Of a stretch of 4,966 bases of DNA, positions 320 to 4,375 are shown piece after piece (positions within the stretch are counted from its first letter, which is position 1; each line of letters starts with the position of its first letter). Source of the DNA: a virus (taxonomy: Duplodnaviria > Heunggongvirae > Uroviricota > Caudoviricetes); IMG/VR virus record IMGVR_UViG_2529292747_000018, one strand, 5' to 3'. The notes beneath the pieces were generated by a model. The model saw only the letters and a program-made list of their open reading frames with translations. It searched no databases and had not been told where the DNA came from. The translations under genes were made by a program, and so were the position numbers.

Positions 320-691
320 ATGCTCATAGATTTGGTTTTACCTTACCCGCCGACGGTGAACACCTACTGGCGACGTCGTGGCAGCACATATTTTGTATCA
401 AAAGCCGGTGAGCGTTATCGCCGGGCTGTGGCGCTTATTGTTCGCCAGCAGCGGCTGAAATTAAGCCTGTCCGGACGGCTGGCAATAAAAATTATTGCAG
501 AACCACCGGATAAGCGCCGCCGTGACCTGGACAACATTCTGAAAGCACCGCTGGATGCGCTGACGCATGCGGAAGTGCTCATTGATGACGAGCAGTTTGA
601 TGAAATCAATATTGTGCGCGGTCAGCCTGTGCCAGGTGGACGGCTGGGCGTGAAGATTTACGAAATCAGAGGTGGTAACGATGGCGCGTGA
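320..691 (+). CDS. rusA: RusA-family Holliday junction resolvase (crossover junction endodeoxyribonuclease)
   Basis: 123-aa ORF with GAGG Shine-Dalgarno 6 nt upstream. Contains RRRDLDN with the conserved catalytic Asp residues of RusA, plus LPxPP...N.Y.R N-terminal and GGRL C-terminal features. Sits in the nin region just before Q. Confidence 0.9.
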
Positions 692-1052
692 TATCCAGAT
701 GGTTCTTGAGCGATGGGGGGCATGGGCAGCAAATAATCATGAAGATGTAACATGGCCCTCGATAGCTGCTGGTTTTAAAGGATTAATCCCGACTAAAGTG
801 AAATCACGTCCTAAGTGTTCTGATGATGACGCCATGATAATTTGTGGTTGTATGGCACGATTAAACAAGAATAATCAGTATTTGCACGATTTGTTGGTGG
901 ATTATTACGTAGGTGGAATGACATTTATGGCTCTTGCACGTAAGCATAGATGTTCTGATGGGCTTATTGGTAAAAGGCTTTATAAAGCGGAAGGTATTAT
1001 TGAAGGAATGCTTATGGCTCTGAATGTCCGGTTAGATATGGATATGCGGTAG
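681..1052 (+). CDS. Q: Late-gene antiterminator Q, phage 21/82-type (QuuD-like)
   Basis: Protein [25 protein letters not shown]...CGCMARL...[10 protein letters not shown] matches the recalled N-terminus of DLP12 QuuD and 82-type Q proteins. ATG at 681 is preferred over the GTG at 672 given by the ORF track. Overlaps the rusA stop by 11 nt. Stop TAG at 1050-1052. Confidence 0.85.
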
Positions 1053-1172: not shown

Positions 1173-1203
1173 CAATCTTCATCATTAAATAAAAGGAGTG
1201 CTT

Positions 1204-2022
1204 ATGTGGATTGTGTTAGTACTGTCACTGTCAACTCTCAGTTGGCATAAGGTAGTGGCTTTTTCATTGTTGACGGTGTCTGTTGTCCTGGCTGTGCTTA
1301 ATGATATTATTGATTGGTCGGTGTTATTTTTTGTTGCTACAATCGTTTTTTTTATTATTTTGAAGTTCAACTGGAAATATAACGCCTGGGCTAAATCTAT
1401 ATATGAAGTTGGCATAGTTTTATCAGCCATAGCATTATTTTTCCATCTATGGCCAGGGTTTCACAATCCTGTAGTGCTAAATTCTGTTACTGTTGGCCCT
1501 CAAAGTACTCCCTATACAATGTATTTTAATTTTGATAAAGCGCTGGTGCCATTTTTGTTAGTCCTGTGTACATCTTCTTTGTTTAAAAAAGAAGTAAAAT
1601 CAGAAGTGTCTTTGTGGAAGTGGGGGGCTCTGTCGCTCTCTGTTCCTCTTATCCTGTTTTTGGCTGTTTTTTTTGGTGGATTAAAGCCAGAGATTCATTT
1701 TCCTGAGTGGTTGCCAGAGTTTATATTGGCTAATTTGTTTTTTGTGTCTCTGGCAGAGGAATCATTATTTAGAGGGTATATTCAATCACGGCTATCAGAA
1801 GTAACGTCTCCATTGGTTGCATTAATTGTGGCGGCTTTGTTGTTTGGTTTTTATCACTATTCAGGTGGTGCTTTACTTGTATTATTTGCCACGTTATCTG
1901 GTGTTGTGTATGGATTGTCATGGATGTGGAGTGGGCGTTTGTGGGTTGCCACCCTTTTCCATTTTGGTTTGAATCTGTGTCACTTGTTATTCTTTACCTA
2001 TCCATTTTTAAAACATAATTGA
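1204..2022 (+). CDS. CPBP-family (CAAX protease / Abi, PF02517-like) polytopic membrane protein on an AT-rich moron
   Basis: 272 aa from ATG 1204, with AAGGAG Shine-Dalgarno at 1193-1198 and 5-nt spacing (the ORF-track GTG at 1198 lies inside the Shine-Dalgarno). Very hydrophobic with multiple predicted TM segments. Three CPBP motifs in canonical order and spacing: EExxxR (EESLFR, 1756-1773), FxxxH (FGFYH, 1843-1857), HxxxN (HFGLN, 1960-1974). Visibly AT-rich relative to the flanking phage genes. Confidence 0.8.
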   Translation: MWIVLVLSLSTLSWHKVVAFSLLTVSVVLAVLNDIIDWSVLFFVATIVFFIILKFNWKYNAWAKSIYEVGIVLSAIALFFHLWPGFHNPVVLNSVTVGPQSTPYTMYFNFDKALVPFLLVLCTSSLFKKEVKSEVSLWKWGALSLSVPLILFLAVFFGGLKPEIHFPEWLPEFILANLFFVSLAEESLFRGYIQSRLSEVTSPLVALIVAALLFGFYHYSGGALLVLFATLSGVVYGLSWMWSGRLWVATLFHFGLNLCHLLFFTYPFLKHN

Positions 2023-2308: not shown

Positions 2309-2671
2309 ATGCTGAAACAGCAGGATATGACAGAAACCGCCAGAGTTGTGTTTGATGAATTAAGCGTCACCGAACCGGCGACGGTCGGGGAGATTGCGCA
2401 GAATACGTACCTTTCACGCGAGCGCTGCCAGTTAATACTGACCCAGCTGGTTATGCGGGTCTGGCAGACTATCAGTTCGGTTGTTACAGACGCCTTCAGT
2501 CCTGAAGGCTTTTTTATTTGTGGTAAATGGGCGGCTGGTGGGTGTAAGGGGCACCCACCAGCCATCTGCTCATGCGTTGGGTTCACAAGCAAACCTCAGG
2601 CCCACTGCTTTGCGCAAAAGCAGAATGAGCCTATCAGAGACAGGCTTAATGATCCATGCTTAATACTGTAA
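2309..2671 (+). CDS. Hypothetical small protein; N-terminal ~60 aa plausibly coding, C-terminal half doubtful
   Basis: 120-aa ORF with a weak ribosome-binding site. The N-terminal part (TARVVFDELSVTEPATVGEIAQNTYLSRERCQLILTQL) looks like a small helical or HTH-like protein. The rest is translated through a textbook intrinsic terminator (2492-2519) and a perfect 12-bp hairpin (2533-2563), which argues against genuine coding. Confidence 0.25.
   Translation: MLKQQDMTETARVVFDELSVTEPATVGEIAQNTYLSRERCQLILTQLVMRVWQTISSVVTDAFSPEGFFICGKWAAGGCKGHPPAICSCVGFTSKPQAHCFAQKQNEPIRDRLNDPCLIL
2492..2519 (+). terminator. Strong intrinsic terminator (GCCTTCA-GTCC-TGAAGGC followed by TTTTTTATTT)
   Basis: Perfect 7-bp stem at 2492-2498 and 2503-2509, 4-nt loop, then a T-run at 2510-2519. 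Candidate for the Q-antiterminated late terminator tR' or an attenuator upstream of the methyltransferase. Confidence 0.6.
2533..2563. repeat. Perfect 12-bp inverted repeat GGCTGGTGGGTG / CACCCACCAGCC with 7-nt spacer
   Basis: Arms at 2533-2544 and 2552-2563 are exact reverse complements. No flanking U-run on either strand, so it is not a classical terminator. Stable RNA hairpin or protein-binding site. Confidence 0.6.
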
Positions 2672-3378
2672 AAATATCCAGTTGTGAGTTAATCAACGCC
2701 GACTGCCTGGAATTTATGCGGTCGTTACCCGAAAATTCTGTTGACCTGATAGTCACGGACCCGCCGTACTTCAAAGTGAAACCCGAGGGCTGGGATAACC
2801 AGTGGGCGGGTGATGAAGATTACCTGAAGTGGCTGGACCAGTGTCTTGCGCAGTTCTGGCGGGTGCTGAAACCTGCCGGAAGTCTTTACCTGTTCTGTGG
2901 CCATCGTCTGGCATCTGACACCGAAATCATGATGCGTGAGCGGTTTAACGTGCTGAACCATATCATCTGGGCAAAGCCGTCCGGACGCTGGAACGGGTGC
3001 AACAAGGAAAGCCTGCGGGCGTATTTCCCCGCCACAGAGCGCATTCTGTTCGCAGAGCATTATCAGGGGCCGTATCGTCCGAAAGATGCCGGGTATGAGG
3101 CGAAGGGTAGGACACTGAAACAGCATGTGATGGCCCCGCTGATTGCTTACTTTCGTGATGCGCGCGCTGTCCTGGGGATAACGGCAAAACAGATTGCAGA
3201 TGCCACAGGAAAGAAAAACATGGTGTCGCACTGGTTCAGTGCCGGTCAGTGGCAGCTGCCGAACGAAAGCGATTATCTGAAATTACAGGCACTGTTTGCC
3301 CGGGTGGCAGAAGAGAAGCATCAGCGGGGTGAACTGGAAAGCCCCACCACCAGCTGGTGGATACGTATGCCTCTCTGA
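2656..3378 (+). CDS. DNA methyltransferase (PF01555-like, beta-class N6-adenine/N4-cytosine), N-terminal fragment with DPPY motif; frame-split from the downstream part
   Basis: N-terminus LINADCLEFMRSLPENSVDLIVTDPPY carries catalytic motif IV (DPPY) in the arrangement typical of phage and ParB-linked amino-methyltransferases. The ORF ends at TGA 3376-3378 while the family's SAM-binding motif lies in the next ORF in another frame. Confidence 0.8.
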   Translation: MLNTVKISSCELINADCLEFMRSLPENSVDLIVTDPPYFKVKPEGWDNQWAGDEDYLKWLDQCLAQFWRVLKPAGSLYLFCGHRLASDTEIMMRERFNVLNHIIWAKPSGRWNGCNKESLRAYFPATERILFAEHYQGPYRPKDAGYEAKGRTLKQHVMAPLIAYFRDARAVLGITAKQIADATGKKNMVSHWFSAGQWQLPNESDYLKLQALFARVAEEKHQRGELESPTTSWWIRMPL

Positions 3379-3713
3379 ACCGACAGTATGCGGAGCTGCA
3401 GAGTGAATATAAGCATCTGCGGCGGTATTTCGGTGTGACGGTGCAGGTGCCGTACACCGATGTGTGGACGTATAAACCGGTGCAGTACTATCCAGGGAAA
3501 CATCCGTGCGAAAAACCGGCAGAAATGTTGCAGCAGATAATCAGCGCAAGCAGTCGTCCGGGAGACCTGGTTGCAGATTTCTTCATGGGGTCGGGGTCGA
3601 CAGTGAAAGCAGCGATGGCGCTGGGACGTCGTGCAACTGGCGTTGAACTGGAGACTGAACGTTTTGAGCAGACGGTGCGGGAAGTACAGGATTTAATCAT
3701 TCGTAACGGATGA
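3357..3713 (+). CDS. DNA methyltransferase C-terminal fragment (HPxxKP and FxGSGST SAM-binding motif I), same gene as 2656-3378 in a different frame
   Basis: Contains KHPCEKP and DFFMGSGSTVKAAMALGRR, the canonical C-terminal PF01555 signatures. The reading frame is open upstream of the annotated GTG start back to 3333 and overlaps the end of the N-terminal fragment, implying a single gene interrupted by a 1-nt indel or slip. Confidence 0.75.
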   Translation: MDTYASLNRQYAELQSEYKHLRRYFGVTVQVPYTDVWTYKPVQYYPGKHPCEKPAEMLQQIISASSRPGDLVADFFMGSGSTVKAAMALGRRATGVELETERFEQTVREVQDLIIRNG

Positions 3714-3753
3714 GATTGCGGAGTTAATCATGCGTCGTTATTATTCAGCAATC

Positions 3754-3829
3754 GGCCCTTTAGCTCAGCGGTGAGAGCGAGCGACTCATAATCGCCAGGT
3801 CGCTGGTTCAAATCCAGCAAGGGCCACCA
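3754..3829 (+). tRNA. tRNA-Ile2 (anticodon CAU, lysidine-type, AUA-decoding), ileX/ileZ-like
   Basis: 76 nt with cloverleaf: acceptor GGCCCTT/AAGGGCC, D-arm GCTC/GAGC, anticodon loop CTCATAA, T-arm GCTGG-TTCAAAT-CCAGC, 3' ACCA. Near-identical in layout to recalled E. coli ileX. The CAU anticodon could formally be Met, but similarity to ileX favours Ile2. Confidence 0.85.
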
Positions 3830-3830
3830 A

Positions 3831-3896
3831 CCGCCACTAGCTCATCAGGAAAGAACGTCACCCTGTGCGAGATTCGGAGTCCCCGGTGGCGGTCCA
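3831..3896 (+). other. Degenerate tRNA-like remnant (possible decayed argN-like tRNA)
   Basis: Perfect 7-bp acceptor-like pairing CCGCCAC (3831-3837) with GTGGCGG (3886-3892), followed by T-CCA, plus a D-arm-like TAGCTCA start and a T-loop-like TTCGGAGTCC. No foldable anticodon arm and only 66 nt long. Confidence 0.3.
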
Positions 3897-3909
3897 TTAT
3901 CGGTATTCT

Positions 3910-3986
3910 GCGTTGTTAGCTCAGCCGGACAGAGCAATTGCCTTCTAAGCAATCGGTCACTGGTCCGAATCCAGTACAACGCGCCA
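3910..3986 (+). tRNA. tRNA-Arg (anticodon UCU, AGA-decoding), argO/argU-like
   Basis: 77 nt: acceptor GCGTTGT/ACAACGC (perfect), D-arm GCTC/GAGC, anticodon stem ATTGC/GCAAT with loop CTTCTAA, T-arm ACTGG-TCCGAAT-CCAGT, discriminator G plus CCA. T-loop reads TCC instead of the usual TTC. Confidence 0.8.
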
Positions 3987-4171
3987 CACCACACTTATCT
4001 GCCCTGACTCTCTTTTGCGGGCTTTTTATTACAGGAAAGACACCGGACAGTGAAATGTTAAATGCCTCACAATTCAGGCAGTTGAATGTTGCCTGACATG
4101 CTGAGCGTTTGTTAAAAAAATTTCGCATGGTGAATCCCCCTGTGCGGAGGGGCAATCAGCAACCAGGTATA

Positions 4172-4180
4172 TGTGATAAT
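4172..4180 (+). promoter_or_regulatory. Candidate extended -10 promoter element (TGtGATAAT)
   Basis: TG at 4172-4173 one nt upstream of GATAAT (4175-4180). No convincing -35. Would start a transcript about 95 nt upstream of the terminator at 4259-4283. Confidence 0.2.
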
Positions 4181-4258
4181 CGCGGATTCAGGTGCTGATA
4201 CTGAATTCACCGGGAGGCACCCGGCACCATGCAAGAAAAAGAATGTGCATGCAAACAT

Positions 4259-4283
4259 GCCCCTCTCCGGAGGGGCATTTTTT
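4259..4283 (+). terminator. Intrinsic terminator (GCCCCTC-TCCG-GAGGGGC followed by ATTTTTT)
   Basis: Perfect 7-bp GC-rich stem at 4259-4265 and 4270-4276, 4-nt loop, then a T-run at 4278-4283. Confidence 0.6.
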
Positions 4284-4289
4284 ATGGGT

Positions 4290-4314
4290 AAAAAATGCCC
4301 GAATGGGTTCGGGC
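4290..4314 (-). terminator. Possible minus-strand intrinsic terminator (hairpin GCCCGAA-TGGG-TTCGGGC with adjacent A-run on + strand)
   Basis: Perfect 7-bp stem at 4297-4303 and 4308-4314. On the minus strand it is followed by a U-run (complement of A6 at 4290-4295). Together with 4259-4283 it forms a back-to-back terminator pair. No obvious minus-strand gene to terminate, so function is uncertain. Confidence 0.3.
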
Positions 4315-4375
4315 AATAGCATGAGATACTGATATTGTTGTGTTGTTATCGTGTGGATTTTAACCAGGGTTTATC

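Follow-up and report, generated by a model that had tools for sequence, protein, structure and literature searches.

A one-base deletion has probably made a pseudogene of an M.EcoGII-type orphan adenine methyltransferase gene in a lambdoid prophage

The 4,966-nucleotide stretch of Caudoviricetes DNA analysed here (IMG/VR record IMGVR_UViG_2529292747_000018; hereafter the window) carries the signatures of one DNA methyltransferase in two reading frames, which raises the question of whether the gene is broken, was misread in sequencing or assembly, is rescued during expression, or encodes two separate polypeptides. An earlier note, made from the sequence alone, had read the two frames as a single PF01555-type enzyme split by a frameshift, and the profile searches bear this out. 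The first frame (ORF1) scored 63.5 bits over PF01555 profile positions 1-106 and the second (ORF2) 88.1 bits over positions 121-220, both above the gathering cut-off of 26.7 that served as our criterion for membership of the family. As the two ORFs together span one profile end to end, this is no chance resemblance. The coordinates of the two frames, their motifs and the neighbouring features are collected in Table 1; the overlap of the two open frames proved to be exactly where the earlier note had put it.

Alignment to intact homologues, which the earlier note had proposed, located the single-base difference. Against both the intact 1,059-nt gene of E. coli O157:H7 TR01 and the methylase gene of an Stx2a phage, the window shows a single one-base gap, the intact genes reading CTGGAAAAGCCCC and the window CTGGAAAGCCCC. 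The note had placed the junction near an A3/C4 run, GAAAGCCCC, which is indeed located at 3337-3345, and the alignment narrows the lesion to the A run rather than the C run: the window has three As (A3) where intact alleles have four (A4). This one missing A is the sole difference from the TR01 allele, and adding an A to the run restores a 352-aa protein that is 100% identical to WP_000935548.1, the product of the TR01 gene annotated as 'DNA-methyltransferase'.

Table 1. Features of the methylase locus and its surroundings (positions are those of the window; Rfam scores in bits)
Feature	Position	Strand	Remarks
Q antiterminator	672-1052		PF06530
CPBP/Rce1-like intramembrane protease gene	1198-2022	+	PF02517
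120-aa ORF	2309-2671	+	no Pfam match; overlaps methylase start by 16 nt
ORF1, N-terminal methylase fragment	2656-3378	+	240 aa; PF01555 (N6_N4_Mtase) match
DPPY, catalytic motif IV	2758-2769	+	in ORF1; residue 35 of repaired protein
Stretch with both frames open	3333-3378	+	ORF2 frame open from 3333; ORF1 stop at 3378
Lesion, A3 run where intact alleles carry A4	3338-3340	+	GGAAAAGCCCC -> GGAAAGCCCC
C-terminal native coding part, K229-G352 plus stop	3339-3713	+	-1 frame relative to ORF1
ORF2 as mechanically called	3357-3713	+	118 aa; start GTG at 3357
HPCEKP, preceding motif I	3501-3518	+	ORF2 frame; residue 283 of repaired protein
FMGSGST, SAM-binding motif I (FxGxG)	3582-3602	+	ORF2 frame; residue 310 of repaired protein
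Downstream tRNA, anticodon CAT			tRNA-Ile in PGAP; ileZ in phage records
Remnant of middle tRNA of ileZ-argN-argO cluster	3831-3905		tRNA-Arg, anticodon TCG in relatives
tRNA-Arg, anticodon TCT	3910-3986
sRNA STnc100	4096-4289	+	Rfam 157.6, strong match
Anti-GcvB sRNA AgvB	4290-4351	-	Rfam 96.5; identical to consensus at every position

The repaired protein has the motif order of a beta-class enzyme, with DPPY in the N-terminal part, a central region, and FxGxG in the C-terminal part. In the window, the 1-bp deletion puts motif blocks IV and I into two frames, so that they do not lie on one continuous polypeptide. The ORF1 product consists of native residues 1-228 followed by a 12-aa out-of-frame tail (SPTTSWWIRMPL) and a TGA stop; it retains the DPPY half and most of the central region, and is without HPCEKP, FxGxG and all sequence downstream of them. 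One 249-aa solved methyltransferase covers both parts of the repaired protein, residues 8-115 aligning to its residues 3-110 and residues 269-333 to its residues 168-235, and since both segments map onto this single structure, both halves contribute to one catalytic domain.

The closest characterized relatives of the repaired protein are found in the M.EcoGI/M.EcoGII group. It shares 325/350 residues with M.EcoGII (about 93%, probably a lower bound as the reference sequence was machine-read from a PDF supplement of PMC11551740), and its 352 aa compare with 349 aa for M.EcoGII, with a few substitutions. M.EcoGII and the 95%-identical M.EcoGI are prophage-encoded orphan beta-class enzymes that methylate adenine in any sequence context and are unexpressed in the lysogen; their constitutive expression is deleterious, leading to slow, unstable growth (PMC5778455). 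The same work names phage 1720a-02 as a carrier of a very similar methylase (PMC5778455), and this phage was also the best phage match for the methylase region in our analysis, at 92.9% DNA identity. In addition, the A4 form of an 81-nt stretch used in our allele surveys is found in the O111 strains 95JB1 and 95NR1, two M.EcoGI/GII homologues of which have been catalogued as non-specific (PMC6602927). The 93% identity thus argues for placing the gene in the M.EcoGI/M.EcoGII group, and an intact copy would be expected to methylate adenine non-specifically.

Like M.EcoGII, the window copy has the beta-class layout and is a prophage-borne orphan, from a family that is widespread in lambdoid and Stx phages of E. 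coli; unlike M.EcoGII, it breaks off after residue 228 and is predicted to lack activity. Its description as an orphan, already given in the earlier note, agrees with the content of the window, which holds no endonuclease gene, and with the related loci inspected, where none adjoins the methylase. Taken together, these comparisons lead us to regard the locus as probably a lambdoid-prophage pseudogene, derived by the loss of one A from an orphan beta-class N6-adenine DNA methyltransferase gene of the M.EcoGI/M.EcoGII type.

To what extent the A3 form exists beyond the window can be read from public genomes. Among 5,426 complete E. coli genomes, 26 contain the exact A3 81-mer; wherever the record name of one of these gives a serotype, it is O157:H7. 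Matches of 95-99% identity come from 328 others, and every listed one of these extends over 82 subject bases at 98.8%, as the A4 form does, while more distant alleles account for another 817. None of 1,151 genomes matched the corresponding A5 query exactly, and the sister Stx2-type allele, surveyed in more than 414 genomes, was never seen with A3; these two results indicate that A3 is a heritable allele of one gene lineage, and not homopolymer noise. In a public assembly collection, 182 indexed blocks contain the exact 240-aa product. Within IMG/VR, 25 contigs carry A4 and a single contig carries A3, in an upstream context different from that of the window. A3 and A4 copies of the same prophage (L019 against L027 and L044) have matching summary counts against the window and are only one gap apart over about 2.8 kb, which points to a recent deletion.

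The frameshifted allele is in fact already known, being flagged as a pseudogene in public annotation: PGAP annotates the identical sequence in strain 2017C-4109 (DSB73_RS07830) as 'DNA-methyltransferase, frameshifted', a flag that we saw in the one record inspected. The DNA of this pseudogene and its surroundings is identical to the window over positions 2479-3964, including the A3 run and a degraded middle tRNA, and the same allele is found in 25 other complete genomes. Upstream of the A3 methylase, those prophages have a DUF1133 Q-like gene, whereas the window has a PF06530 Q gene and a CPBP protease gene. Both this annotation of the exact allele and the membership of the M.EcoGI/M.EcoGII group had been missed by the earlier note.

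Upstream of the methylase gene lie a DUF968 gene, RusA, the Q antiterminator, the CPBP/Rce1-like protease gene and the 120-aa ORF; downstream lie the tRNAs and, some 2.7 kb beyond in related prophages, the holin and lysozyme genes. As described in the earlier note, the methylase gene is placed upstream of the tRNAs in the late region; Q precedes it, and the lysis genes, as judged from related loci, lie beyond. The protease gene directly follows Q, where the late promoter region is expected. Consensus matches mark promoter-like sites just after Q (1113-1185) and terminator-like hairpins at 2164-2179 and 2492-2509; such sites would be compatible with expression from Q-antiterminated late transcription, a fit and not a proof. 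The second hairpin sits inside the 120-aa ORF, which for this reason may not be real. In O157:H7 strain 493/89, the stretch equal to the first 197 nt of that ORF (2309-2505) is annotated by PGAP as a frameshifted TrmB-family regulator.

Methylase genes of Stx2 phages (for example Stx2_EH2201 and 1720a-02) are likewise located between Q and the tRNA genes, with about 92-93% DNA identity. Those copies are intact and lie upstream of the three tRNAs ileZ-argN-argO, after which come stx2AB; in contrast, the window has no stx, one degraded tRNA and a frameshifted methylase. The degraded tRNA is the middle one, in which a 12-nt deletion, common to the A3 prophage of 2017C-4109, took out the anticodon loop, and neither ARAGORN nor Rfam made a call for the remnant at 3831-3905. 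Its loss, together with the frameshifted TrmB-family stretch, fits a degrading prophage. In the T-loop of tRNA-Arg(TCT), position 3965, which we take to be the normally invariant U55, is C in the window and T in all three aligned relatives (GGTTCGAATCC -> GGTCCGAATCC); this T-to-C change may be genuine or may stem from a sequencing error. Two small RNAs, STnc100 and AgvB, both strong Rfam matches, are encoded beyond the tRNAs, and no stx gene intervenes.

Two lambdoid prophage types are combined in the window, which makes it a mosaic. A prophage of O157:H7 strain 493/89 matches positions 341-2545 at 100% identity, and the A3 allele of a paa-carrying prophage does so over 2479-3964, leaving a crossover zone of 67 nt (2479-2545). 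We also considered a simple joining of three O157:H7 prophage segments, for which the first two parts have these matches at 100%, whereas for the last 1 kb of the window the best full-length match is 94.3%. No place in the 5,426 complete E. coli genomes or in the phage collection covers at least 80% of the window, the Q-CPBP-methylase arrangement is absent from those complete genomes, and neither the GTDB species representatives nor the JGI metagenomes yielded a match (0) in scans with exact 63-mers. The arrangement is present, however, in short draft contigs, four of which, found via the 120-aa ORF, encode an intact 352-aa methylase. The mosaic could be the result of real recombination or of a repeat-driven assembly join, and the A3 run of the window may have come with the O157:H7 allele through recombination, arisen by a separate deletion, or resulted from faulty assembly.

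These observations bear directly on whether the A3 of the window is a sequencing or assembly error, the true sequence being A4 and the gene intact, a reading that we consider unlikely. It draws its support from two draft contigs (L017 and L018) that differ from the window by one gap and no mismatch in about 1.5 kb of shared sequence and that, as they encode the intact 352-aa protein, carry A4. It also gains from the lack of a match to the whole arrangement in complete genomes and of any 63-mer match in the two scans, from the short mosaic structure, which is typical of repeat-rich draft contigs, and from the odd change in the tRNA-Arg T-loop. On the other hand, 26 complete genomes and many draft assemblies share the identical A3 allele, as expected of a real, heritable allele, and the survey results for A5 and for the sister allele argue against random homopolymer noise. 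A four-base run is, moreover, not error-prone on most platforms. Overall, of the readings offered in the earlier note, an inactivating indel is the likeliest, an assembly error is possible and a programmed shift, which the note too had held less likely, is improbable.

Readings in which the A3 allele is functional fare far worse. Programmed -1 ribosomal frameshifting or transcriptional slippage could in principle restore the full-length enzyme, as -1 is the direction that a rescuing shift would need and the 90 nt from 3341 (3341-3430) fold somewhat better than shuffled sequence (z = -2.41; 2/200 shuffles fold as well). However, the sequence downstream of 3341 is the same in intact alleles, so this fold probably did not evolve for recoding, and no X XXY YYZ heptamer occurs in the ORF1 frame from 3300 to the ORF1 stop, a range that includes the whole overlap. 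The frameshift is also unconserved, almost all homologues having A4 and one ORF (25/26 contigs in IMG/VR) and the sister allele never having A3, and polymerase slippage would require a run much longer than A3. We therefore give rescue by recoding almost no credence. It is just as improbable that the run is a phase-variable on/off switch or that the methylase is naturally split into two subunits, even though A3 and A4 forms are both present in the population, gene callers do call the second ORF, and switching off could help given that constitutive M.EcoGII expression is deleterious (PMC5778455). The homopolymer tract measures only 3-4 bases and was seen in two lengths, A5 being found in 0 genomes, and A3 occurs in a single allele lineage and never in the Stx2-type allele; on the absence of A5 and of A3 in the sister allele, we rejected the A run as a hotspot or a phase-variable tract. 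As to a split enzyme, the homologues are single polypeptides, almost all with A4 and one 352-aa ORF, and not the consistently separate pairs that the earlier note had considered. The candidate starts in the ORF2 frame within this stretch are all GTG, with no ATG and none preceded by a Shine-Dalgarno-like sequence, on which ground independent translation of ORF2 was rejected, and the start chosen differs between gene callers, giving 118, 92 or 90 aa.

The A3 allele most likely goes back to an unremarkable deletion of 1 bp that recently inactivated the gene in a lambdoid prophage undergoing decay. On this account, one A was lost from the A4 run, and translation would leave the native frame after residue 228 and end at a stop 12 codons on. 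The two fragments would be inactive, since in beta-class enzymes both segments are expected to build one catalytic domain, and ORF2 would be without a credible start of its own. The gene lies in the interval from the Q antiterminator to the tRNA genes, which in Shiga-toxin phages is the site of the toxin genes. Extrapolating from the work on M.EcoGII, an intact copy would be made only in lytic growth, from Q-antiterminated late transcription, and would methylate adenines in any context, which may shield phage DNA from many restriction systems. For a resident, decaying prophage, loss of such a gene would be costless, and could even be mildly favourable given that constitutive M.EcoGII expression is harmful to the cell.

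We also considered whether the truncated 240-aa DPPY fragment could act as a dominant-negative protein, dimerising with intact M.EcoGII-type paralogues of co-resident prophages and thereby damping a toxic methylase. Beta-class methylases are thought to act as dimers (PMC7544214), and the gene family reaches up to 7 copies per E. coli genome. We nevertheless hold this to be a very improbable role for the fragment; were it true, the A3 allele would be retained by selection and not by drift.

The significance of an inactivating deletion at this locus is slight beyond correct annotation, for which the two ORFs should be merged as one frameshifted M.EcoGII-type pseudogene and not listed as two methylase genes. 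In strains with the A3 allele, induced phage DNA would have one fewer potential source of non-specific m6A. Membership of the M.EcoGII group also means that an intact copy is not expected to yield a sequence motif in methylome data, and methylome studies should not seek one from this family. Finally, the A3/A4 difference could mark lineages among the E. coli genomes that carry the gene, if phylogeny confirms a single origin.
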